The position numbers were made by a program, and so were the translations under genes. This document shows, piece by piece, positions 21,886 to 38,631 of a stretch of 64,000 nucleotides of DNA (position 1 is its first letter; each line of letters starts with the position of its first letter). Location: the NCBI GenBank assembly GCA_017503005.1, contig JAFVTW010000003.1, positions 73,807 to 137,806 on the forward strand. The letters run 5' to 3'. This stretch comes from Clostridia bacterium. Its GTDB lineage: Bacteria > Bacillota > Clostridia > Christensenellales > UBA1242. Below the pieces are notes generated by a model that was not told the origin of the DNA, searched no databases, and saw nothing but the letters and a program-made list of their open reading frames with translations.

Positions 21886-21961
21886 GCTGATGTAGCTCAG
21901 TCGGTAGAGCACTGCCTTGGTAAGGCAGAGGTCACGGGTTCAAGTCCCGTCATCAGCTCCA
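21886..21961 (+). tRNA. tRNA-Thr (anticodon GGU), CCA encoded
   Basis: Acceptor GCTGATG/CATCAGC, anticodon stem CTGCC/GGCAG with loop TTGGTAA, T-arm ACGGG-TTCAAGT-CCCGT. Confidence 0.92.
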
Positions 21962-22063
21962 ATCACAAACCTTTGAAAAACCCTTATAAATAGGTGCTTT
22001 CAAAGGTTTTTTATTTTCTAAAATTTTTGATAAATTTTAACTCAAAAAAACATTAGGTGTCAA
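21916..22063 (+). repeat. Left direct repeat (3' 46 nt of tRNA-Thr plus downstream terminator region), attL-like
   Basis: Matches 36000-36147. The tRNA part is identical; a few substitutions and two 1-nt indels occur downstream. Confidence 0.85.
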
Positions 22064-22083
22064 AATTAAGTAGTTTAGGTGTC

Positions 22084-22120
22084 AAAAAAAGACAGATAGT
22101 TAATCACTCAACTATCTGCC
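22084..22120 (-). terminator. Rho-independent terminator for the SEC-C gene
   Basis: On the minus strand: hairpin ggcagatagtt/aactatctgtc followed by a T7 run. Confidence 0.7.
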
Positions 22121-22177
22121 ATGTTCGTTATAAAACTATCAAAAACTGCTCTCATAGGTGTCAAATGGGGACAAACT

Positions 22178-23479
22178 TTATTGTAATATATCCAAATTCA
22201 TTTTATCAAAGAATGATTGAAGTTCTCTTAATGTGGCAGCATTTAAATTTAACTTATGTTGCTCATTAGATATTTTCTTAAAAGCTTCATAAGTTCGAAA
22301 ACTTGCTAAATACGACAGGTATGAATATAAATATATAAATCCATCTCCAAAAAACATGATGTAAGAAGCAAAATTATTCGAAGAGAATAATCTAAATAAC
22401 TTTAATGCAAATGCAAATTGTTTCTCATTTACATCAAACCAACTTTCTGATAAATAACGATTCTCATCAAAATTTTTATCTTCAATTTCTTCTTTCTTGC
22501 CTGTATTAACTTCTTTGATTGTTTCTTCGATAGATTTTATAAATCTAGCAATCATTCCAACGAAGAAATCAGCAAATCTTATCAAAGAACTTTTTTTCGA
22601 ATCTAAACATTTTACTTCAGCATAATTAAAATTGTTTGCTACATTTAAAGTATTGTCTTCATTATCTATAAAGATTTTAGTTTGTGTTTTATCAATACTC
22701 CATTTTAATAAATTCTCATTCAATGATTGAAATGCTATACTATAATCCCAATCTGTTTCTATTTTATCTTCAGCAGAACTAGAATTCTCTAGAATATTTA
22801 CTAAGGAATAAAAACAACGATTTTCACTCCATTTACGTGGAAGCCCATTGTTTTTCTTCAAAATATAATTTAGCTTATTAAGTATCTCTATTCTTGAGTC
22901 TTCAACTGATTTATTTATCAAATCATCAAATATTTCAGTAAATTTGTAAGTATATAAGAACTTGGATAGCGTATATCCAATCACCTGAAAATATGGATGA
23001 ATTTCAATTGGAATCATCAATGCCGACAGAAATCTATAAGTTAATAAACTTGTTTTGCTTAATGCACCAAATAAAAGTTTTGGAGAAACACACAGACATA
23101 AATTGACTATCTCTTCATAAAAACTTAAACAATCTTTATTAAATGAATGCAATCCATCTTTATAATATTTTATTCCAAATGTTGTTGATTTAAATTCTTT
23201 ATCGTTTGGAATACTTAGTTTGCTTTTATATTTTAGCTCTATATTTTCAAATAAATTTGCCAACTTATGATTGTTTATAATGTTGTCTCCAATAAACATA
23301 AAGCAAAAATAATCAGAACTTTGTTCTAAAAAGAAGTTTGTCAGTTCTTTATTTGTTAATTTTCTATCATGGTATATTTCATCATAATAAAATTCGTAAC
23401 AATTGCTTTTTGACAAACAACAATATTTATATTTTTTACCACTTCCACATGAGCATTTATCATTTCTGCCTATATTCAT
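22178..23479 (-). CDS. SEC-C metal-binding motif protein with a large uncharacterised (possibly DUF3800-like) body
   Basis: N-terminal RNDKCSCGSGKKYKYCC. LIRFADFFVGMIARF resembles the DUF3800 C-terminal motif. RBS AAGGAGA. Confidence 0.5.
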   Translation of the reverse strand: MNIGRNDKCSCGSGKKYKYCCLSKSNCYEFYYDEIYHDRKLTNKELTNFFLEQSSDYFCFMFIGDNIINNHKLANLFENIELKYKSKLSIPNDKEFKSTTFGIKYYKDGLHSFNKDCLSFYEEIVNLCLCVSPKLLFGALSKTSLLTYRFLSALMIPIEIHPYFQVIGYTLSKFLYTYKFTEIFDDLINKSVEDSRIEILNKLNYILKKNNGLPRKWSENRCFYSLVNILENSSSAEDKIETDWDYSIAFQSLNENLLKWSIDKTQTKIFIDNEDNTLNVANNFNYAEVKCLDSKKSSLIRFADFFVGMIARFIKSIEETIKEVNTGKKEEIEDKNFDENRYLSESWFDVNEKQFAFALKLFRLFSSNNFASYIMFFGDGFIYLYSYLSYLASFRTYEAFKKISNEQHKLNLNAATLRELQSFFDKMNLDILQ

Positions 23480-23874
23480 AAGTTCTCCTTGAGCCTAGTT
23501 TAACATAAAATAATGAAATTTGGAATATAAAACAGGAATTACATCTCAAAATCTTTTTCTCTTTTGCGTTTTCATGCCTTTCGTTCTTCCATAAGTTTTT
23601 GTAGCATATCATCAAATTCATCATCTGACATGTCTTGGTGTTGAATCTCTTGAAATGCTGGTTTTTCAAGGGATTTAGAGAGTAAAATTGCATTTTGAGT
23701 CTATTCCTTATCCTGCTCGTTAAAATTTCACATAATTTTAACTAATTTTTGTCTGTTTAACCTCCTTTTCACAAAAACTCGAGAGATGAAACCCCTCTAT
23801 AATGTTAACCAATCCAAATTGCAAAGTGTTGCCCAGTTTTGGCAAAATTTCTTAAAAAATTTTTTAATTTTAAT

Positions 23875-23903
23875 GAAAAACACCCAATCATTAAGATTGA
23901 GTG
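23875..23903 (-). terminator. Rho-independent terminator ending island operon B
   Basis: On the minus strand: hairpin cactcaatc/gattgggtg followed by a T5 run. Confidence 0.65.
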
Positions 23904-23909
23904 TAATCC

Positions 23910-24113
23910 TTAAAGTATATTATATTTTTTTATTGCTTTTAGAAATAATATAGTTGCTGGCATTCTCAGATCATGTGAAAGCTTACTCATTTTTTCTGCC
24001 ATCTCATCAAAAAGAACTCCCAAATCTTTTAATTCATTTAATTCAGGTGTGGGTAATTTTGTTAATTCAATTGCTTTTCTTTGTATTTCATTTATTAATT
24101 CTTGATCAGTCAT
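23910..24113 (-). CDS. Small helical protein (67 aa), unknown function
   Basis: Start MTDQELINE is preceded by GGAGA with a 4-nt spacer (the track start at 24137 lacks an RBS). Last gene of operon B. Confidence 0.5.
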   Translation of the reverse strand: MTDQELINEIQRKAIELTKLPTPELNELKDLGVLFDEMAEKMSKLSHDLRMPATILFLKAIKKYNIL

Positions 24114-24123
24114 TTTTTCTCCA

Positions 24124-24489
24124 TTAATATTCATCATACTTTTTATTACACCCCTTAACCTTATCAGCCGGGTATTTTTTATCGTTTTTTTCTATTTTGT
24201 TAGAAACTGCCGAACTTAAATCTATGTTGTTCATTTGAGCAAAACGAAGAACAAAATACAAAACATCAGCTAGTTCTTCTTCAACCTCAATTCTCTTATC
24301 TGAACTCATAACTTTTTTCATATCTTCTTCTGATTTAAATCTAAAGATTTGTAAAAGTTCATTTGCTTCAGTTGAAATTCCAATTGCAAGTTCTTTTGGA
24401 TTATGGAATTGATCCCAATCTCTCTTCTCGCAAAATTCTTTAACTTTATTCTTTAATTCTTCTAATGTTACTACTTTATCGTTTATCAT
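24124..24489 (-). CDS. MazG-like (all-alpha NTP pyrophosphohydrolase, dCTPase-type) protein
   Basis: RDWDQFHNPKELAIGISTEANELLQIF and EELADVLYFVLRFA match the MazG/DCTPP1 helix pair. ATGA overlap with the upstream gene. Confidence 0.75.
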   Translation of the reverse strand: MINDKVVTLEELKNKVKEFCEKRDWDQFHNPKELAIGISTEANELLQIFRFKSEEDMKKVMSSDKRIEVEEELADVLYFVLRFAQMNNIDLSSAVSNKIEKNDKKYPADKVKGCNKKYDEY

Positions 24490-25784
24490 AATTTTTCTCC
24501 TAATAACTTAAAAGCTTTACCATTTAATATACCATCTAACATTCCACCAACAGATAAGTCTCCAACAACTATTTCATCAGATGTGTCAAGCACAAACTGA
24601 TTCCTTATTTTTGCATTATCTCTATTTGTTACTTTAAGCATATTATCGAAAGGTGATATAATTAACATTTGTCCACTATTAACAGCTTTTTCAAACTTTG
24701 TCGGGCACTTGTCGTAAATTTCTCTAGACAATACCATAATAATCTTTTTGTTATTCTTTAACGATAAATCTAATAGTTTACTTTCATTTTTACTTTGAAA
24801 ACCAGAAACAATGCAAATATCTTCATCAACAGTTTCTAACCACTCAGTAATTTTACTTATTGTATTGGGATGACTCTTCTGCGAACTCAAAAATCCCATC
24901 TTGTGATTATTTAAAAGTTTTAAATTTCCTATATAATTTTCTTTTTCACTATTAAATGAAAGGTTACAACAGTCACTTGGATTATAGTTAACATGAGTTT
25001 TCCAATAGTTATATGCTTCGGTACAGTCTTCACAAACACTAATTTGTTCAAACCCTTTAATCTTACTAATAAGTTTTTTCTTTGTTTCTAATGGAAGATG
25101 ATAATATCCACCTTCTTTATGAGTATATTGAGAGTAATCTAAATCAAAAGTTCGCTTAATAAAGCCATTTACTCTAAGGAATTCCACAATTACTTTCTTA
25201 CACTTAACCTTATTTAAAATATCAAAATCAATATATTCAGGAATAAACGGACTTACTCTGATTGCAACATCAAAGCCATTGGCTGAAAGTTTTTCAATTG
25301 CTTTAATCCTTTCTGAAGAAATAGTTGCCTGTTCGTAGGTTAAAGCAGTTTTATCATCTGTACTAGTAACGGTTATTTGAATGTGTGCTAAATTTTTATC
25401 TAGAATTTTCATATATTCATCACTAGCAATCAAATTAGATTTAGTAACGATTAAATAATGAATTCCATATTTATTTAAAAATTGAATAGTTTTATATGTA
25501 ACTTTATGTTTTACTTCACAAGGTTGAAAGCAATCTGTCATGCCTCCAAGTCTTAAAACCGTTCCTTTTTCAAGAGTTTTAATCTTTTTTTCAATCTTAC
25601 TAATATCTGCCACACTAGGGTCATCAGGATGCCACAAGTCTCTAAACCCTAAAAGAGACTTTGCATAACAATACTTGCAGTCGTGAAAACAGCCACAACC
25701 ATAAGTGTCTAGTCTTGTGGAATAATGACATTTTTGTCCTTCATTACCTTCAACAGTTTTATAAAAACTTTTAAACTCTTTCAT
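24486..25784 (-). CDS. Radical SAM enzyme (SplB/COG1533-like) fused to C-terminal DprA/Smf-like (SLOG) Rossmann domain
   Basis: CGCFHDCKYCYA (CxxxCxxC), RLGGMTDCFQP and LIVTKS. C-terminal 130 aa (ICIVSGFQSKNESKLLDLSLKNNKKIIMVLSREIYDKCP...GQMLIISPF...KIRNQFVLDTSDEIVVGDLSVGG) follows the DprA pattern. Confidence 0.65.
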   Translation of the reverse strand: MKEFKSFYKTVEGNEGQKCHYSTRLDTYGCGCFHDCKYCYAKSLLGFRDLWHPDDPSVADISKIEKKIKTLEKGTVLRLGGMTDCFQPCEVKHKVTYKTIQFLNKYGIHYLIVTKSNLIASDEYMKILDKNLAHIQITVTSTDDKTALTYEQATISSERIKAIEKLSANGFDVAIRVSPFIPEYIDFDILNKVKCKKVIVEFLRVNGFIKRTFDLDYSQYTHKEGGYYHLPLETKKKLISKIKGFEQISVCEDCTEAYNYWKTHVNYNPSDCCNLSFNSEKENYIGNLKLLNNHKMGFLSSQKSHPNTISKITEWLETVDEDICIVSGFQSKNESKLLDLSLKNNKKIIMVLSREIYDKCPTKFEKAVNSGQMLIISPFDNMLKVTNRDNAKIRNQFVLDTSDEIVVGDLSVGGMLDGILNGKAFKLLGEKL

Positions 25785-25799
25785 CCTTTGTCCTCATAT

Positions 25800-27530
25800 T
25801 TAATTAAAATATTTCTTTAAATACTCATTCATGTTTTGATTACAAGCATAAATGTAGCAGCCTTTTATACCTCTTTCCATCATTACTTTGTAAGAATTAA
25901 TAATATATCTCTTTAGTTCTTCTGGAGAACTTCCTTTTTTAACATTTGTATCGTAAAAGTTATCAGGATATATTAATGTTTGATTGTTTATAGGATCATA
26001 GTCTATTTCTTTTCCTAAAATAACACCAACATAATTCAAATCATAACCTTGAGTGGTGTGAATACAACCAATCTCATTAATAGATTCTTTTCTTAAAATC
26101 CATTCTTTGTTTGTCATATTCCAAGGATAAGTTTTGTTTTCAAATTTAATATCATATAGTCCTTGATTTTTTATTTCTTCTAAAGATTTTCCTTTAGTTT
26201 TCCATTCCCATGCATATCCAGCAACATTCCTACATAACCCATATTTGTCATTAAGTTCTTTTATGCTGTCAATCATTTCATTAGGATCATCAAAAACTTT
26301 AATATCATAATTTTGTATTTGTTCTTTGCTGTCAACAGTACATTTTAGAATTTTATCTAAATAATCAATATAAAGTTTTCCACCTTCACATCTCATTTGA
26401 GAAGTTAAAGTGTACTCTTTAATTTTTGTTCTACTTAATGAATTTTTAAATTCTTCAGGTGAAATATCTGAAGCTTTTATCGATTGTTCTTTATCATAAA
26501 AAAGAATTCTATGTTTACTACTTTTCACAATCCAATCTAATGTATTAGTTGTTTCAGGTTTCATATTAAGCTTTCTACAGCACTTATCAAATTCTCCCAT
26601 CCAACTAATGTTTTTTCTTTTTGGAAGTCTATGGGTTTCATCAACTAATAATATATCAAATTGTTCACCAACAACATCTGTTGGACCAATAACCATTTTG
26701 CTTTTTAAACCGTTGTGACTCTTATTAAAAACAGCTTTAAGCGTTGCTCTTATCGATGTCATTGGCAAAACATAACCAATTTTTAGTTCTCCGTTGTCTT
26801 CAATATACTTTTTAAGTCTATGTAAAATCTTGTTTTTAAAAGTTGCATATTCAAAAGATTCTTCATCTTTAAAGGAATCTATTGTTTGAGAGTTAGCATT
26901 GGTTAACAAACTCATAATATAGATAGCTAAAATAGTTTTACCTGTACCTGCAGATCCATTGATAATACAAGTCGTACCATTCTTAGAATCTTTTTTAAGT
27001 CCATCTAGGATATCCTTAATAACATTATAGCAAACTTCTTCTTGTTCCACAGTTAAAGAAGTATATGGGGAATAGGTAAACAGATCACTATTAACAATTG
27101 ATTCATAAGTAGATTTAGCAAGATTTAAATCTCTTAAATAATCCCATATTCCTTTATTTTCTTCAGATCCTTCAATTTTGTTTAAATATTTTTCCCTTTG
27201 ATAATAGTTGTGTTTTGAAGATTGTCCTGCATTCCCATTTAACAAAGTGAACTTTTGGTCTGCATTACACATTCTAATCAAAGATTGCTCAATATCTAAT
27301 ACTGCAGATTTATTAAATTCATCATCAAAAATAACATGAATATCTTTTAATCCACGCTTTTGCTTATTATCTAAGTGTTGTCCAAATCTATTAAAGAAAT
27401 TACTTGTTTCTCCAATGTACAAATAACTTTTATTGTTAATTAAATAAACAACAGGCCAATCTCTACCTTTTGCTTCATTTAGAACTAAATTTCGTCCTTC
27501 TTGAGAGAAACTAAAACTTTTAATTTGCAT
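25800..27530 (-). CDS. GIY-YIG nuclease domain fused to DUF2075 (Schlafen-type SF1) ATPase
   Basis: GIY-YIG: VVYLINNKSYLYIGETSNFFNRFGQH. ATPase: GSAGTGKT, LLVDETHRL, GYAWEW, IHTTQGYDLNYVGVILG. RBS GGAGA. Confidence 0.7.
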   Translation of the reverse strand: MQIKSFSFSQEGRNLVLNEAKGRDWPVVYLINNKSYLYIGETSNFFNRFGQHLDNKQKRGLKDIHVIFDDEFNKSAVLDIEQSLIRMCNADQKFTLLNGNAGQSSKHNYYQREKYLNKIEGSEENKGIWDYLRDLNLAKSTYESIVNSDLFTYSPYTSLTVEQEEVCYNVIKDILDGLKKDSKNGTTCIINGSAGTGKTILAIYIMSLLTNANSQTIDSFKDEESFEYATFKNKILHRLKKYIEDNGELKIGYVLPMTSIRATLKAVFNKSHNGLKSKMVIGPTDVVGEQFDILLVDETHRLPKRKNISWMGEFDKCCRKLNMKPETTNTLDWIVKSSKHRILFYDKEQSIKASDISPEEFKNSLSRTKIKEYTLTSQMRCEGGKLYIDYLDKILKCTVDSKEQIQNYDIKVFDDPNEMIDSIKELNDKYGLCRNVAGYAWEWKTKGKSLEEIKNQGLYDIKFENKTYPWNMTNKEWILRKESINEIGCIHTTQGYDLNYVGVILGKEIDYDPINNQTLIYPDNFYDTNVKKGSSPEELKRYIINSYKVMMERGIKGCYIYACNQNMNEYLKKYFN

Positions 27531-27559
27531 ATTTTATCTCCAAAATAACTTTTCACCAT

Positions 27560-27600
27560 TCATTATAGCATACTTTTTCTGATTTTGTATGAAAATGCAA
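27560..27600 (-). promoter_or_regulatory. Putative promoter of island operon B (extended -10)
   Basis: Minus strand reads TGCTATAAT (27562-27570), about 30 nt upstream of the ATG and immediately after the kinase terminator. Confidence 0.5.
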
Positions 27601-27631
27601 GAAAAAACTAGCAAATTTAATTTTTGCTAGC
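27601..27631 (-). terminator. Rho-independent terminator ending island operon A
   Basis: On the minus strand: hairpin ctagcaaa/tttgctag followed by a T6 run. Confidence 0.7.
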
Positions 27632-28624
27632 TTATATTAATGTATTAATATCGTCTATAAGTTGATTTATGTGTTGATATCTCTTTTCTAAATCTTCTAT
27701 CGTGCATTTTCTGCATATGGCAGATAATTCATGATTGTAACAATTGGGATTAGCAGTCTTTACATAGTTAATTATTTTACCCATCGAATATATATCGGTT
27801 TGCATATTTGCATTATTTAAATTTCTATAAGCTTTTGGATCTGTATATTCTTCTACACCAACGTGTGGCTCAATAGATATGCAAGAGTGGCTAGTATCAA
27901 TAGATGAAACTCCGAAATCAATAACAAACCAACAACCAGATTTATACATAAAATTCCCAGGATGCAAATCTCGATGAATAATATTAGCATCGTGTAAAAA
28001 TTTTACCTTGTTCAACATGTCTAGTATTTGTAAATTTGTTATTGTAAATTTAAGGTCTTTTGCTTGGTATAGAGAATAATCTGCCTTTTCCATTTTTATC
28101 TCAAAACCATTCGCATTCTCAATATCCTTATTTAATAACATTTTTTGTTTTACGGAATTCTCTAATCTTTTTAATTTTGATATTACACGTTTTTCCCTTT
28201 CAAACGTTTCTAATGCAAATGGTGTTTTATTGTCTAATAACTTAATAACAATAGTTTCATTTTCTTCATTAACAATAAAGACCTCACAAAAACTACCAGA
28301 TTTGGACACCTTCTTTTTCATGTTATAAAAAATTCTATACTTACATCCGCTATAAGACAAAATATTGTTAATCTTTTCATATGCTACATCTCTTTCGTAA
28401 TTATATAAACTTTGTACTAGAGATTCAAAAAAATCATCATATTCCCATTCTTGTAGTTCATTATCAAAGAATCCATCCCAATCTAATTTTTGTTCTAAAC
28501 TCTTTTGTGATAAAAGCTTATTATTTTCATATTTTTGATATAAATTTCTTTGCTCATCTGTTTTCAGTTCTTCTCTTATAAGACCTATTAGAAGGTTTTT
28601 TGTTTCTTTTGTTAAATTAAACAT
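27632..28624 (-). CDS. Ser/Thr protein kinase-like protein
   Basis: IVIKLL (VAIK-like), IIHRDLHPGNFMY (HRD loop), VIDFGVS (DFG). Starts 2 nt after the upstream stop. Confidence 0.75.
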   Translation of the reverse strand: MFNLTKETKNLLIGLIREELKTDEQRNLYQKYENNKLLSQKSLEQKLDWDGFFDNELQEWEYDDFFESLVQSLYNYERDVAYEKINNILSYSGCKYRIFYNMKKKVSKSGSFCEVFIVNEENETIVIKLLDNKTPFALETFEREKRVISKLKRLENSVKQKMLLNKDIENANGFEIKMEKADYSLYQAKDLKFTITNLQILDMLNKVKFLHDANIIHRDLHPGNFMYKSGCWFVIDFGVSSIDTSHSCISIEPHVGVEEYTDPKAYRNLNNANMQTDIYSMGKIINYVKTANPNCYNHELSAICRKCTIEDLEKRYQHINQLIDDINTLI

Positions 28625-28626
28625 AA

Positions 28627-31600
28627 CTATAAATAACCTTCATTATATTCTTCAATTTGCGTTCTTGTTAATTCTTTTCTGTTCCATTGAATATATTGAT
28701 TTATAATAGGCTCATATTCTAACAACTTATTTTCTTTTAGTTTGTTTTTTACATCCAGTAACATGTCATAATTCTTTTCTATGTAATGAACTCTGCTTCC
28801 AGACCAAGAATGAGGACCTCCTGCAATAGGAATTTTAAGTAAAAGTTCTTTTTTACATTTATTGGTCATTAATAAAATAATAAACTTTTTTTGTATATCA
28901 TGCGAGTATTCTTCTACAATTGACATTAATTCAAATAATTTCTCTCTATCATCAATATTACACAATATCAATTCTTCCAATATTTCTATTCGTTGATTTG
29001 TATCTCCGCAAGCCAAAACATGTTCCAAATCAAACCTTGAAAGGATTTTATTATTGAGTAAATATTTACATAGAAATATAATTAAATCCTTCCAATCTTG
29101 TCTTTTCCACAAAAAACGAACATCTATTTGATCCACATTCTTTATATATTCTTTCAAATATTCTTTATCTAAATCAATAATGTAATTTATGAAATTCCTT
29201 TCGTAGTCAACATGATGTTTTTTAGATAACAACCTAAAATATAATTGAATTAAAACATAAATAGATTCTTTATAATAAACTATAGATTTTTGAACTATTT
29301 CTTTATGAAATAGTGTGGAAAACACAAGGCAAATCATATAATTATCTTCATTTAATGCTAGGTTAGTTGATTCAATATAAAAATCATAATTAAAGTCATA
29401 ATATTTGTTTAATCTTAATATTTGATCACATCCTCTAATCACCTTAAGATTTGATGTATTCGAAAATAAATTTAAACATTCATTATAAATAGTTTCATCT
29501 ATTTTATCGGCATAACAAAATACAGAAAATAAATAATTCCATTTATATTCAAAACAGCTTTTTTCAAATAACAACTTAATTTTATTAAATCCATTTTCTT
29601 GTATTAATAGTTCAATAAATTTATCAGAATAAATATAGCAAGAAGAAAATTCGGAATTTAAGAATTTTATTATATCCAATCTTGCACAATCTTTATAGGT
29701 TTTCTGTTCTAATAAAAGATTTATTATTGTTTCAGTCGGTGTTTTATACGATTCAATAACATCACTTGATTGTTTTAATTGTCTTATGATCTTAAAAATT
29801 TTTCTTTTGGTAAGATTCTTTAATTCTTTAGTGATATTGTCATATTTTTCTGGCCATCTATAAGAACTTCGTTCTTGCATATCTAACAATTTTAACGCTA
29901 ATGCTTTTTCTTTGATATGTTTAGTTGAAAACATTTTTTTATTTATTCTTTCAAAATATCTTAGTAAGCTATACTTAAACACTAAACTACTAAATTCTTT
30001 TTCGTTTATTGTATTTAAAAAATTTTGTATTAAAGAAAATTCTAAACTTTCTGTTTTCTTTGCTGTTTTTAAAATAGAATAATGTGTAATGGCTTTGCTT
30101 AATTGTCCCAATTCATTACATGAGCATTGCTTATAAACATCATTAACAATATCCCAAAGCAATTTTCTATAGACTTCAACACCCAAATTCCATCCAAGTG
30201 GAACATTATAAAATGTCAAATTACGGCCATAAGATTCTGTGCTTTCAAAGCAAAACTTACAATGTTTTTCAATAACTTTTATTTTAAAGCACACTTGTCC
30301 ATCTAAAGATTTTAATAGTTTAAGCATTTGATTTTGTGTATCATAATTATTATCAAAAGATTTTTGTGTAACTATATAATTTTCGATTATTAATTTTTCA
30401 ATAGTTTCTTTATATTCTCCAGTAGAATTTTTTAATTCTCTGAATATTAAGTTTGTTGCTTGTTCAGAATAGTCAGTTTCTAAAAAATTTATTAATAGTT
30501 CAACATATTCCTTCTTATTAGATTCTAACTTTTTATCAATAATTTCTAAAGATTCGCTCGGATTAGCCAATTCTAAAGCAGATAAATAAGTAAATAGTAA
30601 TGGGTTATCTTCTTCGTAAAGAATATCTTGAACTCTTTTGATTTCTGATACTAAATACAAATTATTGTTGTAAACATAATTTAAAGAGTTTATGGAATCA
30701 ACTATATTTCCTCTATGCGTTTTTAAAAATTTAACTAGTAAATCTTCTAGTTTTAATATTTTCTTATGAATAAAGACATAATTAAATAAATATGTTCGTA
30801 AAATTTGATCTTCCATTACCGCAATATTATCATCATAGATCAATTTGATAATTTCTTTATTATCCCAATATTGAATGGAATATAAAAAATCTTCCTTTGC
30901 TAATTTGAATGTGTCTAGAATATTATTCAATAATGACTCGTTTTTATCTTTTAAATAAATTTTTTGAAAGAAAGCAAAAATTCCTAGTGTTTTTAATAAT
31001 TTTTCATCTCTTATTAAACTTTCTTCATTTATGTCTTTAAAAATTTTTATAAAATGATTTTCAAGAATATCTTTAATTTCAGGATATGAGTTGTCGGTCT
31101 TTAAAATTGTTCTAGATGCTAATATTGCAAATCTCAAATTCCCTTTAGATACTTTTATAATATAATCAAGATATTTGTCGTTCTGAATATTATATTCTTG
31201 CTTAATGATATTTTTGATTTCATCATTAGTTAAAGACTTTAATTCATAAGTATCAAAATCCATTCTATAAACCGACATGATTGATTTTAATGCATAATCT
31301 CTTACAGTTGCCACAATTTTTATATTATTTTTTTCATGTACAAATTTATTTATTCTATCAAAAATTGACACTCTATTAATATCATCGATTATTAGTAAAT
31401 ATTCAACATCTGTATTAACTAAAAATCTATTAAAATCTTTGCTAATATCAAATGAACTATTATTTAAAACATAAACCTCTCGCTTTGCTCCTTGATTTTG
31501 CCATTCTTCAGCAACTTCTAAAACAAATCTTGTTTTACCATCTCCAGCTTTGCCATATACAATCACTGAACCATTCGAAATAAAATCCAATAGTTTATTT

Positions 31601-32169
31601 TTATCTTCTTCTCTATAATGAAACTTGCAATTATGTTCTTCAGTGAATTGTTTTGACGCTTTATATGACAACAAAGAATTTAAACTTCCATCAGATAAGT
31701 TAATGTTCAACCAATCATTTGCAATAATAGGACACTGCAAATATATTAATTGAGTTAAATCATCTAAGCCAACAAAAATAAAATTAAATCCCTTACCTGT
31801 AACATATTCTAGGATTTCATTTAGTGTTTTAATTTTTATATTTTGGTTACAGCAGAATATGATTTCATGCAAAGCAATTTGCTGTTTCTCAAATTCTTCA
31901 ATACATCTATCTATATCATGTTTAATTTTAGTTTCAATTTTTGAATCTACAGAACATTGTACAGCTATATTTTTTGCATCTGAAACAATAAATATATCGG
32001 GAGTTCCTTTTGTTGTTCTTAATTTTCCATGCTGTACACCAATCTTTTCAATGTGGGTATTACTATTTGTCTTTAATTTACATATATATGGAACCATATC
32101 TCCAATCATTCTTTCAAATCTGACGGGATCTATATTTATTAATGCATTTTCAATTTCAACAGACTTCAC
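28627..32169 (-). CDS. STAND/Avs-like P-loop NTPase, 1180 aa, with restriction-endonuclease-like N-terminus and long helical C-terminal region
   Basis: GTG start with RBS AAGGAGG. N-terminal GTPDIFIV...IAVQCS, Walker A GKAGDGKT, Walker B LLIIDDINR, then about 800 aa of helix-rich sequence. Confidence 0.55.
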   Translation of the reverse strand: MKSVEIENALINIDPVRFERMIGDMVPYICKLKTNSNTHIEKIGVQHGKLRTTKGTPDIFIVSDAKNIAVQCSVDSKIETKIKHDIDRCIEEFEKQQIALHEIIFCCNQNIKIKTLNEILEYVTGKGFNFIFVGLDDLTQLIYLQCPIIANDWLNINLSDGSLNSLLSYKASKQFTEEHNCKFHYREEDKNKLLDFISNGSVIVYGKAGDGKTRFVLEVAEEWQNQGAKREVYVLNNSSFDISKDFNRFLVNTDVEYLLIIDDINRVSIFDRINKFVHEKNNIKIVATVRDYALKSIMSVYRMDFDTYELKSLTNDEIKNIIKQEYNIQNDKYLDYIIKVSKGNLRFAILASRTILKTDNSYPEIKDILENHFIKIFKDINEESLIRDEKLLKTLGIFAFFQKIYLKDKNESLLNNILDTFKLAKEDFLYSIQYWDNKEIIKLIYDDNIAVMEDQILRTYLFNYVFIHKKILKLEDLLVKFLKTHRGNIVDSINSLNYVYNNNLYLVSEIKRVQDILYEEDNPLLFTYLSALELANPSESLEIIDKKLESNKKEYVELLINFLETDYSEQATNLIFRELKNSTGEYKETIEKLIIENYIVTQKSFDNNYDTQNQMLKLLKSLDGQVCFKIKVIEKHCKFCFESTESYGRNLTFYNVPLGWNLGVEVYRKLLWDIVNDVYKQCSCNELGQLSKAITHYSILKTAKKTESLEFSLIQNFLNTINEKEFSSLVFKYSLLRYFERINKKMFSTKHIKEKALALKLLDMQERSSYRWPEKYDNITKELKNLTKRKIFKIIRQLKQSSDVIESYKTPTETIINLLLEQKTYKDCARLDIIKFLNSEFSSCYIYSDKFIELLIQENGFNKIKLLFEKSCFEYKWNYLFSVFCYADKIDETIYNECLNLFSNTSNLKVIRGCDQILRLNKYYDFNYDFYIESTNLALNEDNYMICLVFSTLFHKEIVQKSIVYYKESIYVLIQLYFRLLSKKHHVDYERNFINYIIDLDKEYLKEYIKNVDQIDVRFLWKRQDWKDLIIFLCKYLLNNKILSRFDLEHVLACGDTNQRIEILEELILCNIDDREKLFELMSIVEEYSHDIQKKFIILLMTNKCKKELLLKIPIAGGPHSWSGSRVHYIEKNYDMLLDVKNKLKENKLLEYEPIINQYIQWNRKELTRTQIEEYNEGYL

Positions 32170-32223
32170 TAAGTTCCTCCTTTTAGATTATTTTTTTAGA
32201 TTTCTAATAGATTTTTATTAACA

Positions 32224-35200
32224 TTAATCTATTAACCCATGCTTTTTTAATCGAGACCTAATACCGCCAATTTTTCTTTGATGAATATCTGCTATTTCTT
32301 TGATAGATAATCCTTGTTTAAATTCTTTTATTAGTTGTAAATCTTCCTGTTCTGTCCATCTTTCCCATGCGGAAGGGAAATTTTCATCATGTTGTAACTT
32401 TTCTTTAATTTTAACTTTCTTTTCTAGCTCTAATTCCATAATTTCTTTTATTACATCAATGTCAATATTTAAACTATTTACATTATCGTTAACTCTAACA
32501 GTTGGGTATAACCCACCAGTTTTATAAAGAATATTTTCGCCAACAAGATATTCAATTAAATTAAAGATTGATTTTGTTTTAATTTTGTTTAAACAAGCAT
32601 ACAATTTTTCATTATGTAAACCCGCATCCAACAATTGTTGTGGTTTGTTTCCCTTTAAGAAGTTCGCCAACATTGTTGCACCGTAATATGTTGATCGATT
32701 CATATCTTTACATGCTTGAATTATAATTTTGCAGATATCTAGTTCTGTAATTGAATCATTATTTGAATCACAATTATTTTTTGGAGCGGATTGACCATCC
32801 AGTTCATTGTCTTTATCTTCAGCAATCTTAGTAATGTCCATTGTTTCTTCTTTAGTTGTTTGCTTGTTGGACTGAACATCTGGTTCTAATTCGGTTTCTT
32901 TTTGATTAAAATCTTCAAATTCAATTATTTCATCTTTATCTAAGTTATCGTCATAATCTTTTTGTGATAATGTATTGCTACATCCTGATCCGTCAACTTT
33001 ATAATTTGTACAACCCAAGAAAGGATACTCATTTTTTGTTTTTACAATTAAATAACCGTCTAAACACTCTGTACATTTTTGAATAGACATTTTTCCACCA
33101 ACAAGATTGTTAGATAAAAATCCACATACTTCAGGTTCGTTTGTACATATCCAAAGTGTCATTCCACAACCTTTCTTATGTCTTCTTTGTAAAGGATATC
33201 CACATAATGGGCAAACTTTATTTGTAATAAGACCATGAGCTTCAGGATTTAAATTTCCTTTCAAAACTATGTTTTTATACTCATTCTTAATTTCTAATAC
33301 AAACTGAGAAGGATGTTTTTCTGGTGCAATTAAATATACTCTATTTTTAGTTCTAGTTAAGGCAACATAAAATAATCTTCTTTCTTCAGCATATTCTATC
33401 TCATTGTGTTGTTTAATAACTAATTTCATTACAGGATCATCTTCAATTTTAGAAGGAAATCCATATACAGCATCTTTTGCATTGATAATAATGACATTAT
33501 CATAACCTAAACCTTTAGAACTATGTGCAGTTAAAAATTCAATGTTTACACTTGGATGTTTTATTGATTTAACTTTGCTTCCTCTTGAAAAATACTCAAA
33601 TTTACCTGTTCTAACTAAATTTTCACCATCATAATTATATCTTCCAATTAAAAGTATTTTACTATCTTTTCCATTAGTTTTAATAATTTCCGATATTGCA
33701 TATTCTAAGGCTTCAGCCATTCTATTCAATGGGCCTGATTCCTTTGCCGTTTCATTATATCTCTTCGGAGAATCGTCATAACTTACAACAATAACAGGAT
33801 CATCTATATGCTTTGGTGAAACTAATGTTTTTTTAATCTGAGCATCATTTTTTTGAATAAATCCCCCTGCAATATCAATAACCTCTTGTGCATTTCGATA
33901 GGTGCGAGTAATTTTAAGTTCCTCACCGTAACCCATCTTTTCACAAAATTGTGTAAACAAAGTAACATCTGAACCACTAAACGCAAAAATAGACTGCCAA
34001 TCATCACCAACCGCAATTATTTTAGCATTTGTAACTTTTGACAATTCTTTTGCCATATCAAAGCGCTGTCTTGAAATGTCTTGATACTCATCAATGATGA
34101 TATATTTAAAATCAAGTTTTTGTTTTAAAGAAGCAACTTCTCTTAATGCTCGTGCCGCATCATTTATCATATCTTGAAAATCTACCGCATTATTTCTAAC
34201 TAAGGCCTTTTGGTACTCAAGATAACATTCTCTACAGATTTCTAAAAACAATTTTGTTCTTTCGCTCTTTGTAGTTCTTATAAAGTCATAAAATTGTTCT
34301 TCAGTATATCCATTAACTTTAAAGTTATTTATAAAGTCACAAATTAAATATACCATCTTAGAAACATATTTATTTTCTTGAATTGATGTTAATTTCTCTA
34401 ACACTTCTTGTGATGGTTTAGGATTTAGTTCTATATTATTTTCATTCAGCAATTGTTGTAAATGATCTAAAAGACTTCTTCCATCATTATATTGTGAAAA
34501 GGTATATATAAGTTTTGTATTATGTTTTTTATGTATTAGAATCTTATCGTTTATTGATTTTTTATATTTTTCAAGCTCTTCTTTAGTATATTTATTATTT
34601 TCACCATTTTCAGAAATACCGAAATGCTCTAAATAATATTGTTTTCCGTTTTGTTTAATCAGAAAATCTGGAGTATATCTTTTTTTAGACATAAAGATAT
34701 AATATGGATAATTAGGTTCATATTCGTAATCTATGCCATTTAAATATAGGAAGTTTGCGATTTGTACTTCTTGAGCTGAATTTACTATTTCATTATTTAA
34801 AGTTACTTTTTTATTTGAGTTTTTCTCTACAAAACTATATTGATATTCATTTAAGTTGCTTTTCAATGTAGAAAAGTCTGATTTTACTATATGATTTAAA
34901 AATTCCTGCTTATTGTCACCTTCATATTGACTATCAAAATAACTTCCAAAAAACAAAACTATATTGTCAGCCGATCTTTTGTCTTTCATTTTGTTTAAGA
35001 AATAATCTTTGACAGTATTATATAAAAATCCACCTTCAACAATATTTAATTTTTCATCCGTTTTCTTTCTTAAAATTGCATTTCCCGCAGAGTGAAAAGT
35101 TGTAATTGGACACTCTATTTTCAAGTCTTTGTTTATTTTATCTTTTAACTCACCAACAGCTTTATTAGTAAAAGATATAATCAATATTTGCTTTGGATCT

Positions 35201-35694
35201 ACATTTTTCTTTTCTACTAAATATTTTACTTTAGCTGCAACGGTAGTAGTTTTCCCGGCACCAGCACCTGCAATCACTAAACAATAATCTTCATCAGTAA
35301 GAATAACTTTCCTTTGATCATCATCTAACATTATTTTAGGATCAACATCTTTTAATATTTCATCTAAATATTTCTTTTCTTTATTCATTTTTGCTTGGAC
35401 AAAAGATTTATTTCTATTAGAGACCACATCCTTCAAACTGCTATAATTTGAAATAAACTCAATTACCATATTTTCAGAAATTTTATTTTTCTTACAGTAT
35501 GATTTTAATAGTCCAGCATTTTTAATCGCACAAAAAGAATTATATGCTTTTTCATAATCTTTAAAAAGAAACATATAATCTTTTCTTGAAATATAATTAT
35601 CTGAATCCATCAATTCTTTTAGTTTGGAATTAAAAGCTTCTACATCTTTAATTTCTTCAGGTAATTCTGTCTTTTTAAAATTAAACCAAAACAT
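32224..35694 (-). CDS. Helicase IV/UvrD-like SF1 helicase with Vsr-like nuclease insert, two topoisomerase-type zinc ribbons and C-terminal HTH modules
   Basis: AGAGAGKTTT, IIIDEYQD, VGDDWQSIFAFSG, LTAHSSKGLGYDNVII, LFYVALTRTKNRVYL. Insert NGIDYEYEPNY...RYTPDFLI...YLEHFG. CPLCGY...CTNEPEVCGF and CTEC...GCTNYKVDGSGC. RBS AAGGAGA. Confidence 0.75.
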   Translation of the reverse strand: MFWFNFKKTELPEEIKDVEAFNSKLKELMDSDNYISRKDYMFLFKDYEKAYNSFCAIKNAGLLKSYCKKNKISENMVIEFISNYSSLKDVVSNRNKSFVQAKMNKEKKYLDEILKDVDPKIMLDDDQRKVILTDEDYCLVIAGAGAGKTTTVAAKVKYLVEKKNVDPKQILIISFTNKAVGELKDKINKDLKIECPITTFHSAGNAILRKKTDEKLNIVEGGFLYNTVKDYFLNKMKDKRSADNIVLFFGSYFDSQYEGDNKQEFLNHIVKSDFSTLKSNLNEYQYSFVEKNSNKKVTLNNEIVNSAQEVQIANFLYLNGIDYEYEPNYPYYIFMSKKRYTPDFLIKQNGKQYYLEHFGISENGENNKYTKEELEKYKKSINDKILIHKKHNTKLIYTFSQYNDGRSLLDHLQQLLNENNIELNPKPSQEVLEKLTSIQENKYVSKMVYLICDFINNFKVNGYTEEQFYDFIRTTKSERTKLFLEICRECYLEYQKALVRNNAVDFQDMINDAARALREVASLKQKLDFKYIIIDEYQDISRQRFDMAKELSKVTNAKIIAVGDDWQSIFAFSGSDVTLFTQFCEKMGYGEELKITRTYRNAQEVIDIAGGFIQKNDAQIKKTLVSPKHIDDPVIVVSYDDSPKRYNETAKESGPLNRMAEALEYAISEIIKTNGKDSKILLIGRYNYDGENLVRTGKFEYFSRGSKVKSIKHPSVNIEFLTAHSSKGLGYDNVIIINAKDAVYGFPSKIEDDPVMKLVIKQHNEIEYAEERRLFYVALTRTKNRVYLIAPEKHPSQFVLEIKNEYKNIVLKGNLNPEAHGLITNKVCPLCGYPLQRRHKKGCGMTLWICTNEPEVCGFLSNNLVGGKMSIQKCTECLDGYLIVKTKNEYPFLGCTNYKVDGSGCSNTLSQKDYDDNLDKDEIIEFEDFNQKETELEPDVQSNKQTTKEETMDITKIAEDKDNELDGQSAPKNNCDSNNDSITELDICKIIIQACKDMNRSTYYGATMLANFLKGNKPQQLLDAGLHNEKLYACLNKIKTKSIFNLIEYLVGENILYKTGGLYPTVRVNDNVNSLNIDIDVIKEIMELELEKKVKIKEKLQHDENFPSAWERWTEQEDLQLIKEFKQGLSIKEIADIHQRKIGGIRSRLKKHGLID

Positions 35695-35715
35695 ACAATT
35701 CTCCTTATAAGTTTT

Positions 35716-35724
35716 ATTATATCA
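35716..35724 (-). promoter_or_regulatory. Extended -10 element upstream of island operon A
   Basis: Minus strand reads TGATATAAT, about 20 nt upstream of the RBS. Confidence 0.4.
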
Positions 35725-35999
35725 TATATTTGAAATTTTTGTATTATTTTTAGAATATTACTTGTTAAAATTATTATTTTCTCCTGACAACACTTATTGT
35801 TCGGTTTTAGGCGAGTTTAGATGGTTTTAGGTGGAAAAATTAGGTGTTTCGGCGGGTTAAAATGGGGCTTTTGTTGTCAACTGTTGTCAGATTTTTGAAA
35901 ATTGACAACAATTGGAAGATTTTGGAGTAACAAAAAACACAGGAAATATAAGGGTTTCCTGTGCATTGAGTTCGAGTCTCGTTTGGGTAAAATTCAATA

Positions 36000-36147
36000 C
36001 TTGGTAAGGCAGAGGTCACGGGTTCAAGTCCCGTCATCAGCTCCAATCATAAACCTTTGAAAAACCCTGTAAAATCGGGCACTTTCAAAGGTTTTTTATT
36101 TTCTAAAATTTTTGATAATTTTTAACTCAAAAAACATTAGGTGTCAA
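36000..36147 (+). repeat. Right direct repeat: displaced 3' fragment of tRNA-Thr (36000-36045) plus terminator region, attR-like
   Basis: Matches 21916-22063. Upstream flank is unrelated to the tRNA 5' half. Confidence 0.85.
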
Positions 36148-36178
36148 TTTTTGGAGCAATTGCTGTCAAAAAAGAGAC

Positions 36179-36563: not shown

Positions 36564-37466
36564 TTAACTATGAAGAGATGGGATTTCGATGCCATTTTCT
36601 GCAAAGACTTTTGTGAAAAATTTCGCACTATCGTATGCTTCAGGGGTCTTTTTGAAGATGGATTTTTTGTACCATTTAGATATAGGAAGCACTCCAGTAT
36701 GCAAACCTTTTTTTGTTTTTTCTTGTGGGTTTGCTAATTTGATGAAGTTTTGGAAATCTTTATAGATTTTTTTCATTTTTGCTGCATCGTCTATGATAAA
36801 TAAATCTTTGTTTGCTTCGGTTAGACAAGCTACATAATTTTTCGTGATTTTAAATCTATCTAGAAGTCTTCCTATGTTTTTACAGCACATATATTCGTAT
36901 TCTAAATTTTCAAATTTAGCAAAATTGTCTTTTTCTTGTTTTAAAACTAATTCATCGTTTAATAAATGTAGGGTTTCTTCTCCAAATGGTGTAAGGCTAT
37001 TGGTAGAAATTTTAAAGTCTACAAAGTTGTTTTTTTCTAGCCAATAGCATAGTTGGTAGCAAGCTTCTCTTTGTTTTCTATCATCAAATTTTGCTATTTC
37101 TGCTAGTAAGTTAGATATAGTGAATTTTTGACTCGTAGGCATTTGCATGATTTTATCTTTTAAAATGTTAAGTAGTTTTGAAGGGGTGTATTTGATTTGA
37201 TTTACATCTGTTCTTTTGCCGAACATAAATTCTTGTAGCAGTTCCTTTTCGGTCATACCAGATGATCCCAGCATTGTTTCGCCATTTTCATTTGCCAAAA
37301 TTATAATGCCACCTTTATATCTAGGTGGTATTACTTCTAGGCTGGGTGTAAGCGAAACCATAAGTATATTTGAGTTTGAAATCAAATGGCTAGACGATTT
37401 GATTGTTTGAAAGTCAACATCTAATGTTTGTGCTACTAATTCTTGGATTTTCTTTAGATTACTCAT
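36564..37466 (-). CDS. Hypothetical protein (300 aa)
   Basis: Long ORF, 1-nt gap to the upstream ARH gene. Confidence 0.6.
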   Translation of the reverse strand: MSNLKKIQELVAQTLDVDFQTIKSSSHLISNSNILMVSLTPSLEVIPPRYKGGIIILANENGETMLGSSGMTEKELLQEFMFGKRTDVNQIKYTPSKLLNILKDKIMQMPTSQKFTISNLLAEIAKFDDRKQREACYQLCYWLEKNNFVDFKISTNSLTPFGEETLHLLNDELVLKQEKDNFAKFENLEYEYMCCKNIGRLLDRFKITKNYVACLTEANKDLFIIDDAAKMKKIYKDFQNFIKLANPQEKTKKGLHTGVLPISKWYKKSIFKKTPEAYDSAKFFTKVFAENGIEIPSLHS

Positions 37467-37467
37467 A

Positions 37468-38259
37468 TTATTTCTCCTTAAATTTATTAAATGATAATAA
37501 GTCGTCTTTTAGTTGTTGGTCTAGATAAGATATTGCCATTGTCTTGATATCTTCGGGTATGCCATAGTATGCTTCAGCTATTGCACATGATATTGCACAT
37601 AGAGTGTCGCTGTCGCCACCTATAGAAATACTGGTTCTTAGGCAATCTTCGAAACTATCGCTTATCAAGAAACAGTATATCGCTTGAGGTACAGTGTCTT
37701 GACAATGTTCGTTAAATTTGTAGTTTTGCACCAAGTTGTTGTAATCAAAATCTAAATTGTAGTAGTTTTCTTCAATATGTTTTTTGATTTCTTCTTTGGT
37801 TTGTTTTTGTAGAGCTAGCCAAATTGCTATAGCTGTAGCTTCTGCACCTTTTATTCCTTCAGGGTGGTTGTGTGTTACAGCAGTAACCTTGTAAGATAAC
37901 TTTTTGACTTCTTCAATATTCTTAGCGAAATATGCAACAGGACTTACTCTCATTGCTGAGCCATTCCCAAAAGAATTGTATGGTTTTGGATTTTTGTTTT
38001 TTAGCCAAACGGCGAAGTTTCCACCATAACCTCTGCCAGGGTACAGGTCACCATATTTTTGCATTTGTTTTACTGTATTGTTTGATAGATTTAGATATCT
38101 AAATTTTTTTGATTGCTCTAATGCTTTGAAAACAGCAATTGTCATTACTGTGTCGTCAGTAAAGAAACAATTATTCGAGAACAGCGGGAAGTCTTTTGTT
38201 CTAATATTGTTGAATTCGTATATGGAGCCTACTATATCTCCTATGATTGCACCTAACAT
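37468..38259 (-). CDS. ADP-ribosylglycohydrolase (ARH/DraG family)
   Basis: MLGAIIGDIVGS, FTDDTVMT, GNGSAMRVSP, THNHPEG and GGDSDTLCAI match ARH metal and ligand motifs. Confidence 0.8.
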   Translation of the reverse strand: MLGAIIGDIVGSIYEFNNIRTKDFPLFSNNCFFTDDTVMTIAVFKALEQSKKFRYLNLSNNTVKQMQKYGDLYPGRGYGGNFAVWLKNKNPKPYNSFGNGSAMRVSPVAYFAKNIEEVKKLSYKVTAVTHNHPEGIKGAEATAIAIWLALQKQTKEEIKKHIEENYYNLDFDYNNLVQNYKFNEHCQDTVPQAIYCFLISDSFEDCLRTSISIGGDSDTLCAISCAIAEAYYGIPEDIKTMAISYLDQQLKDDLLSFNKFKEK

Positions 38260-38262
38260 AAT

Positions 38263-38631
38263 CTAATCTTCCTTTAGAATTATTTTGTTGATTTGTTTAA
38301 GAATTTGGTTTCCTAATTCTTTAGTTTTAGTATCGTTTACTGCAAAGTTTACATAAATATTTGTATCATCAAATAATATTGTTATATTGTTTACATACCC
38401 ATCCAAAGCATAGATGTCTAAATAGTCAACTGTCTGTTCTTTGGAAATTTGTACAAGTGAGTCAAAATTATTTTTTATTACTTGTTGAATACTATTGTAT
38501 TGATTTTGGTCAATATCATATGAGTTTTTGTCAATTTCTACCACATTTGATATGTTCGTGGCTGAGTTTGATATATTGATATATGTATGTGAAGTTCTAA
38601 GTATCAAACTAAATTTGTTGTTGTTATTCAC
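38263..38631 (-). CDS. Hypothetical Asn-rich protein (122 aa)
   Basis: ORF 3 nt upstream of the ARH gene. Confidence 0.5.
   Translation of the reverse strand: MNNNNKFSLILRTSHTYINISNSATNISNVVEIDKNSYDIDQNQYNSIQQVIKNNFDSLVQISKEQTVDYLDIYALDGYVNNITILFDDTNIYVNFAVNDTKTKELGNQILKQINKIILKED

Follow-up and report, generated by a model that had tools for sequence, protein, structure and literature searches.

The 64,000-nucleotide (nt) window analysed here (positions 73,807 to 137,806 of contig JAFVTW010000003.1, assembly GCA_017503005.1) comes from a Clostridia bacterium and carries, on its minus strand, a gene for a 1180-amino-acid (aa) STAND NTPase (28627-32169) directly followed by a gene for a 330-aa Hanks-type protein kinase (27632-28624). 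The pairing of these two genes is real and old, and constitutes a rare, unannotated and deeply conserved two-gene module. We put at roughly 0.55 the probability that the pair is an antiviral, Avs-type and NLR-like defence module; by its appearance, the sensor is of an already known antiviral type and seems to have acquired a kinase of its own. An earlier reading of the bare sequence (the original prediction) had singled out the locus and called the pairing unfamiliar, and in the literature that we searched no description of an operon combining an Avs-like STAND with a Hanks kinase was found.

Conservation of the STAND-kinase pair

The kinase homologue begins between an 8-nt overlap with, and a 3-nt gap after, the STAND stop codon in about 11 lineages, across which identity to the STAND protein of the window ranges from 99% to 22%. 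The tight junction is shared by three contigs with a near-identical copy of the surrounding block (L093, L094 and L097), and by loci in which the STAND protein is 64% (L096), 48% (L095), 47% (L098 and L099), 41% (L001, L002 and L003), 40% (L004-L006), 23% (L100) and 22-23% (L103 and L132) identical. In L114, the 88 nt ahead of the kinase encode a STAND C-terminus, after which the contig ends. The view of the original prediction that the kinase is hard-wired to the STAND NTPase is borne out by this recurrence. A survey of the pair with and without the helicase gene that lies upstream of it in the window had also been suggested; STAND and kinase are conserved together, and the conserved unit does not extend to the window-type helicase.

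The association was examined from both sides. Among 102 loci fetched by a kinase profile, a STAND neighbour is present only beside kinases that carry the N-terminal domain described below, while the other kinases are Stk2-sized (415-530 aa) with no STAND nearby. Searches by tblastn and hidden Markov model found no kinase in 80 GTDB species genomes with more distant STAND homologues, and none of about 84 more distant STAND homologues examined, two plasmid copies included, has one. A neighbour-joining tree separates the kinase-linked STANDs from the solo ones and, crude as it is, fits a single ancient gain of the kinase. The identities of the two proteins to their counterparts in the window drop in parallel, with STAND/kinase values of 99/95, 64/56, 47/43, 41/33 and 23/25%.

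Comparison of the window with L097 gave synonymous divergence (dS) values of 0.20 for STAND and 0.25 for the kinase, against 0.51-0.61 for the helicase, Schlafen-type (SLFN) helicase, radical SAM and MazG-like genes around them. Within the block, the STAND-kinase segment thus shares a later common ancestry than its neighbours, and recombination within the cassette probably gave it its lower dS. The ratio of nonsynonymous to synonymous divergence (dN/dS) was 0.12-0.14 for STAND and kinase, showing that purifying selection acts on both genes.

A broken kinase gene stands beside an intact STAND gene in three of the roughly 11 lineages (L003, L004-L006 and L095). The kinase of L003 (L003:5082-6050) has an in-frame stop at codon 33; those of L004 (L004:11561-12531) and L006 (L006:4225-5195) are frameshifted near residues 146-175, with L004, L005 and L006 being three independent samples; and that of L095 (L095:7229-8214) is frameshifted near residue 225. 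Such kinase-null lineages make it unlikely that the kinase is an essential, antitoxin-like brake. The losses fit a kinase with an accessory role, be it that of a costly effector, a sensor or a regulator.

Domain architecture of the two proteins

The STAND protein is tripartite, as the original prediction had proposed, and the motifs quoted there are all present in the STAND and kinase translations. Pfam matches at aa 201-350 are to nSTAND_NTPase5 (6.8e-7), NB-ARC and NACHT, all below the gathering score; the family member in L103 exceeds the nSTAND3 gathering score (41.5 vs 27.2). The NTPase core (aa ~185-380, 31030-31617, minus strand) contains a Walker A motif G206-KAGDG-K212-T within GKAGDGKT (206-213), a Walker B pair D262-D263 within LLIIDDINR (258-266), and a sensor-1 segment T288-V-R290-D291. 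Residues G206, G209, G211, K212, D262, D263, T288, R290 and D291 are invariant in 24 family members. Walker A, Walker B, the sensor-1 Arg and the STAND-type fold matches together place the protein in the STAND superfamily.

An AlphaFold2 (AF2) model of the full-length protein, built on the family alignment, has a predicted local distance difference test score (pLDDT) of 84.7. From about residue 390 to 1177 nearly all of it is helical, matching the roughly 800 aa of helical repeats originally predicted; these C-terminal alpha-helical repeats (aa ~390-1180, 28630-31002, minus strand) are interrupted by one beta-hairpin insertion at about aa 640-657 in the AF2 secondary structure, and are presumed to be the ligand sensor. 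The best fold matches in the PDB are Avs4 (8dgf, 1.2e-13), Avs3 (8dgc) and EfAvs5, followed by SAMD9, NLRPs including NLRP3, Dark and ZAR1. The model thus has the tripartite Avs architecture of an N-terminal restriction endonuclease-fold domain, a STAND NTPase and about 790 aa of helical repeats.

A homologue search with the window STAND returned 25 clusters. A search of 1.84 billion representatives, using a profile of the near-clade STAND alignment and clusters at 50% identity, returned 1258 clusters at E < 1e-3 and 756 at E < 1e-30. Nearly all members are 1190-1265 aa long and align end to end, C-terminal repeats included, and they come from cyanobacteria, acidobacteria, proteobacteria, firmicutes, Leptospira plasmids and some archaea. 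The STAND family is a sizeable one of fixed architecture and without annotation. The near-clade profile had no match in a metagenome scan or an IMG/VR scan, and a fold search of BFVD returned generic AAA+ and RFC matches only. PADLOC, which the original prediction had recommended, gave Stk2 as the closest model for the kinase and GajB for the helicase; no PADLOC v2 model matches the window STAND, and five further family members had no meaningful match. There is likewise no sequence match to the PADLOC Avs1-5, NLR-like and bNACHT models or to PDB Avs sequences. The sensor therefore has the architecture of an Avs protein yet stands outside the profile-defined Avs and bNACHT families of PADLOC v2. 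On one 13,820-nt metagenome contig the STAND gene is split into pieces of 842 and 341 aa (P0216 and P0220), so the sensor too is occasionally pseudogenised.

The N-terminal domain (aa 1-160, 31690-32169, minus strand) was modelled separately with a pLDDT of 85. Its Foldseek matches are Nt.BspD6I (2.6e-5), EcoT38I (7.8e-5), the Avs4 N-domain (7e-4), Cap4, Can2, Hjc and BamHI, and the model has the alpha-beta-beta-beta-alpha-beta core of the PD-(D/E)xK fold, in agreement with the restriction endonuclease-like N-terminus first read from GTPDIFIV (55-62) and AVQCS (69-73). Structure prediction was needed to reach this assignment because sequence searches were insufficient: the N-domain profile gave chance matches only against PDB sequences, and Pfam gave weak, sub-threshold matches in the N-domains of family members (RE_NgoPII, Mrr_cat, AHJR-like and L_protein_N). 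The motif reads G55-x-P57-D58 ... Q71-C-S73 ... K81-x3-D85. G55, P57, D58, K81 and D85 are invariant across the family, with K81 and D85 on the helix that follows, and D58, K81 and D85 are kept in kinase-linked and solo STANDs alike. The position of the canonical Lys is occupied by Ser or Thr throughout the family, as expected from the earlier remark that this Lys was not evident. Position 71 is Gln in the clade of the window and Glu in most other members. We considered the change from Glu to Gln as a mark of effector replacement in kinase-linked STANDs, and rejected it because the proteins of L100 and L103 are kinase-linked yet keep E71.

The kinase matches Pfam Pkinase at 9.6e-15 (55 bits vs a cutoff of 31.7), and its HRDLHPGN and DFG motifs are those of the eukaryotic-type kinase originally described. 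The beta-3 Lys, alpha-C Glu, HRDxxxxN and DFG Asp of Hanks-type kinases are all present, and K128, E144, H217-R-D219, N224 and D236 are unchanged in five homologues of 25-56% identity. Stk2, to which the original prediction had likened the protein, is indeed the best PADLOC model (1.9e-24), followed by PD-T4-6; the match is confined to the kinase-domain part and covers only positions 134-353 of the 500-position Stk2 profile. The kinase also matches the PHROG profile phrog_4972 (501 positions). The catalytic domain occupies aa ~105-330 and is preceded by an N-terminal domain of about 100 aa (28325-28624, minus strand), which has no Pfam match and is kept in eight full-length kinases. In a collection of 5.8 billion proteins, this 320-330-aa kinase type forms about ten clusters at 90% identity, without a name in any source; the next matches, at no more than 120 bits, are kinases of 415-510 aa.

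Two further ideas about the kinase were discarded. An adaptor domain common to helicase and kinase, which begin with MFW and MFN, was not supported, as BLASTP gave no alignment and a profile of the eight N-domains matched the helicase at E = 0.66 and below 0 bits; the likeness of the two starts is taken to be coincidental. A CapK/CapS-type regulatory kinase was also rejected, since CapK belongs to the anti-sigma-factor-type (GHKL) kinases and its gene lies upstream alongside that of a STAS repressor (PMC13373217), and fold and layout here differ from those of CapK.

Predicted mechanism and the role of the kinase

In the mechanism that we propose by analogy with Avs3, Avs4, Avs5 and Stk2, the 1180-aa STAND protein would be both sensor and switch. 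Its C-terminal helical repeats would bind a conserved phage component, and binding would lead to NTP-dependent oligomerisation through the STAND core, as in Avs3 and Avs4. The oligomer would then gather and activate the N-terminal nuclease-fold domains, and may recruit and activate the co-translated kinase through the private 100-aa N-domain of the latter. Phosphorylation of host proteins, phage proteins or both would abort the infection in the manner of Stk2, such that the output of the oligomer would be the nuclease-fold domains, the kinase, or the two together. A more specific proposal is that of a bacterial NLR-kinase pair, arisen once in a deep bacterial clade, in which an oligomer formed on a phage ligand activates the Hanks kinase by induced proximity, and phosphorylation is a new or parallel effector output; we advance this tentatively, at slightly less than even odds. 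In a bolder version, the pair may cooperate, by phosphorylation, with whatever helicase-nuclease lies upstream, which is UvrD-type here and DdmD-like in L095 and L004.

Three points weigh against a defence module of this kind. The predicted antiviral role draws on fold, architecture and neighbourhood, and PADLOC holds no model for the STAND protein. The nuclease-fold domain is without its canonical Lys and, in the clade of the window, has Gln in place of Glu; active restriction endonucleases with a non-Lys third residue do exist. Finally, the sensor persists without an intact kinase in three lineages, so the kinase may be dispensable or have another role.

One such role would place the kinase upstream of the STAND protein or make the latter its target, either as sensor or bait, in the way that RKS1 serves ZAR1 and Pto serves Prf among plant NLRs, or as a regulator whose phosphorylation of the STAND protein licenses or restrains it, with the nuclease-fold domain as the sole killing effector. 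Distant homologues keep the restriction endonuclease-STAND-repeat architecture without a kinase, so that the N-domain alone is presumably a sufficient effector, and the invariance of D58, K81 and D85 in both groups is in line with this, as is the toleration of kinase loss in three lineages, which would be expected of an accessory specificity or regulatory factor. We nevertheless consider this arrangement unlikely. The kinase keeps all its catalytic residues at a dN/dS of 0.14 and is therefore predicted to be an active enzyme rather than a pseudokinase bait; an essential inhibitor of a toxic STAND would forbid lineages that are kinase-null and STAND-intact; and the nearest relatives of the catalytic domain are stand-alone, Stk2-type effector kinases.

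A defence module in which the kinase serves as an output can be compared with several known systems. With Avs3 and Avs4 it shares the tripartite layout, the N-terminal PD-(D/E)xK fold, the helical-repeat sensor and the defence-island context; it differs in having an NTPase of nSTAND3/nSTAND5 type and a nuclease motif without the canonical Lys. No Hanks kinase adjoins Avs1-5 as solved, whereas the subclade described here has an obligatorily adjacent one. Known bacterial STAND and Avs sensors kill through fused effectors such as nucleases, SIR2, TIR and proteases. A survey of STAND defence describes about 90 structural families as well as Avs7-24, all with effector domains located within the protein, and its text mentions no kinase partner of a STAND (PMC13581612).

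With Stk2, the abortive-infection Ser/Thr kinase of Staphylococcus epidermidis, and with PD-T4-6, the kinase shares the Hanks-type catalytic domain, and its nearest sequence relatives are Stk2-sized (415-530 aa). It cannot be assigned to Stk2, which is defined by a full-length profile match and by a single-gene system: at 330 aa, it is missing the regions that flank the catalytic domain in Stk2 and starts with a 100-aa domain of its own, and kinases with this N-domain were never found alone, their genes always following a STAND gene directly. Known defence kinases, Stk2 and PD-T4-6 among them, act by themselves, and their way of sensing infection is poorly understood.

A computational precedent for a kinase as effector in STAND-centred conflict systems comes from the work of Kaur, Burroughs, Iyer and Aravind, in which S/T/Y kinases figure among the effectors of multi-gene iSTAND and ternary conflict systems, coupled via effector-associated domains (EADs) and vWA/MoxR-type partners, and found mostly in multicellular bacteria (PMC7159879, PMC8195603). 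Those systems are multi-gene, while the present one is a two-gene operon without a detectable shared adaptor domain. Outside bacteria, NOD1/2-RIPK2, the plant ZAR1-RKS1 and Prf-Pto are NLR receptors with a dedicated Hanks-type kinase or pseudokinase. Their homology to the pair is limited to the superfamilies, there being no CARD or known adaptor, and the likeness is one of analogy only.

Upstream helicase, mobile island and wider meaning

The three minus-strand open reading frames lie exactly as first described: the helicase gene (32224-35694, 1156 aa, ATG start), the STAND gene (GTG start, preceded by an AGGAGG Shine-Dalgarno sequence) and the kinase gene (ATG start), with gaps of 54 nt (32170-32223) and 2 nt (28625-28626). 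The extended -10 noted at 35716-35724 (minus strand) is present, reads TGATATAAT and lies 21 nt ahead of the helicase ATG. It is a plausible candidate promoter of the helicase gene, possibly also of both genes downstream, and is graded no higher because promoter-like sites occur at shuffled background in this AT-rich DNA (104 sites vs 101.7 expected from shuffled sequence). A terminator scan agreed with the original placement of a terminator after the kinase and none between the genes: the sole terminator-like site on the coding strand from 35694 to 27600 is that at 27605-27633 (minus strand; 11 pairs followed by a T-run, RNA fold -11.2 kcal/mol, z = -2.4), which closes the unit and is followed by a TATAAT-like box for the next gene. 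As no terminator separates them, co-transcription of helicase, STAND and kinase is possible in this genome.

The helicase is a superfamily 1 (SF1) enzyme of UvrD/PcrA type, with Pfam matches to UvrD-helicase (4.9e-47), UvrD_C and RQC, and PDB matches to UvrD, PcrA and Rep. It has zinc ribbons at about aa 870-910, an RQC winged helix at aa 988-1073, a C-terminal sigma70-r4-like helix-turn-helix (HTH), and an insertion at about aa 300-360 for whose nuclease-like character the sole evidence is a weak Phage_endo_I match (1.5e-3). The label helicase IV-like applies loosely, in that the NCBIfam helicase IV model NF008276 scores 289 bits, mainly over aa 436-807, against a cutoff of 543, so the protein is not assigned to HelD. 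The best PADLOC matches are generic, UvrD-type GajB models (up to 2.3e-48); Nhi and Hhe, with which the original prediction had compared the helicase, find no support, neither profile being in the best 25 of its 44 PADLOC matches. PADLOC found no GajA among the seven proteins of the island, so Gabija is not indicated either. The likeness to GajB and to helicase IV/HelD lies in the SF1A UvrD/PcrA-type helicase; the differences lie in the missing GajA partner, the score below the HelD cutoff, the extra nuclease-like insertion, the zinc ribbons, the RQC domain and the HTH.

The original prediction treated the three genes as one operon and left undecided whether the helicase belonged to the same system. 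A three-component system, with the helicase-nuclease as a further effector or DNA sensor, could be read from the 54-nt gap, the absence of a terminator between the genes, the travelling of the block together in four contigs, and the presence of a different, large DdmD-like helicase-nuclease just upstream of STAND in two other lineages. We regard it as distinctly improbable. The window-type helicase travels with the pair solely in near-identical copies of the block, and its L093 copy is frameshifted beside an intact STAND and kinase; L001, L100, L103 and L132 have no helicase upstream of the pair; helicase homologues at 29-36% identity reside on plasmids without STAND or kinase, beside DUF262, GIY-YIG and DUF3800 genes; and the dS of the helicase is 0.51, against 0.20-0.25 for STAND and kinase. 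The three-gene operon is not supported as a functional unit, and of the two options left by the original prediction, the independent single-gene module is favoured over membership in the same system. Most likely the helicase is a separate defence-island gene, possibly co-transcribed here.

The DdmD-like proteins just mentioned are superfamily 2 (SF2) helicase-nucleases of about 1150 aa, encoded upstream of pairs at L095:233-3706 and L004:3677-7117 (also in L005), with PADLOC DdmD matches of 5e-30 and 2e-32; the gene in L095 extends 20 nt past the start of the STAND gene. No DdmE-like gene is visible near those in L095 and L004, so that here a DdmD-like protein is found apart from the Argonaute-like partner that it usually has, next to a different sensor. 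A functional link between the pair and helicase-nucleases in general is possible.

The pair resides in an island of about 14 kb (21886-36173), marked by a tRNA-Thr(GGT) at its edge (21886-21961), imperfect direct repeats and low GC content. The repeats (21916-22089 and 36000-36173) are 174 nt long, 78% identical and contain part of the tRNA 3' end, and the GC content is 24-29% within the island vs 31-34% in the flanks. Within it, blastn delimited a mobile block of 11.86 kb with seven genes (23911-35749, minus strand), namely helicase, STAND, kinase, a GIY-YIG-SLFN helicase, radical SAM, MazG-like and a 67-aa open reading frame, which recurs at 91-96% nucleotide identity with differing flanks in the three contigs L093, L094 and L097. 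There is no integrase in the island of the window; L097 (GCA_054293605.1 at NCBI) has one downstream of its block copy. More generally, STAND-kinase pairs lie beside integrases, Mob_Pre, restriction-modification systems and helicases of the DdmD-like and SLFN types.

The least probable reading is that STAND and kinase serve in housekeeping or signalling, perhaps as an NTPase tied to transcription or stress together with its cognate kinase, and just happen to ride on mobile DNA. In its favour, no PADLOC model matches the STAND protein, and the STAND phylogeny of PMC13581612 has non-defence clades interspersed with defence clades. Against it, the protein has a nuclease-fold effector domain in a tripartite Avs layout, the genes are often pseudogenised and show a rare, patchy distribution on islands, plasmids and integrase- or Mob-bearing elements beside restriction-modification systems, and the module is without a DNA-binding output domain.

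Several other genes of the region are worth recording. Behind the terminator and the TATAAT-like box, the gene after the kinase (25800-27530, minus strand) encodes a GIY-YIG domain joined to a Schlafen-group-3 (SLFN-g3/DUF2075) helicase. The gene in the corresponding position encodes a NERD-like protein with an SLFN-g3 helicase in L001 and L002 (L001:12618-14468) and a T5orf172 (GIY-YIG-type) protein in L098 (3999-4646); the recurrence of a nuclease-helicase after the kinase may be meaningful or may merely reflect defence-island content. The radical SAM gene (24486-25784, minus strand) overlaps the gene for a MazG-like NTP pyrophosphatase (24124-24489, minus strand) by 4 nt, and both have a dN/dS of 0.05-0.07 against L097. 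The radical SAM protein has PA0069/'mobile pair B'-like family matches, a weak match to pVip, and a PsyrA/DprA-SLOG-like C-terminal half; the two genes look like a separate candidate defence pair that would modify or deplete nucleotides. Between the conserved block and the tRNA-Thr, a gene with a SEC-C motif and DUF3800 (22178-23479, minus strand) occupies the tRNA-proximal end of the island, the usual place of an integrase, and on an Acinetobacter plasmid (L206) a DUF3800 gene likewise lies close to a homologue of the helicase. Outside the island, at 36564-38631 (minus strand), an ADP-ribosylglycohydrolase gene (37468-38259; PF03747, 1.2e-40, DraG/Tri1-like) is flanked by open reading frames of 300 and 122 aa, both without a family match; this segment could be an ADP-ribosylation toxin-immunity or regulatory module.

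To our knowledge, the coupling of NLRs to kinases is otherwise known only from animals and plants. If true, NLR-kinase signalling by the pair described here would be mechanistically analogous to NOD-RIPK2 or ZAR1-RKS1. A STAND-kinase operon would give bacterial NLR-like immunity a new effector logic, would be a natural case of a defence kinase with a dedicated upstream sensor, and would offer a simple two-gene model of NLR-kinase coupling, for which the lineages that lost the kinase naturally, and the sister clade of like sensor architecture that has none, are ready comparisons for the contribution of the kinase.

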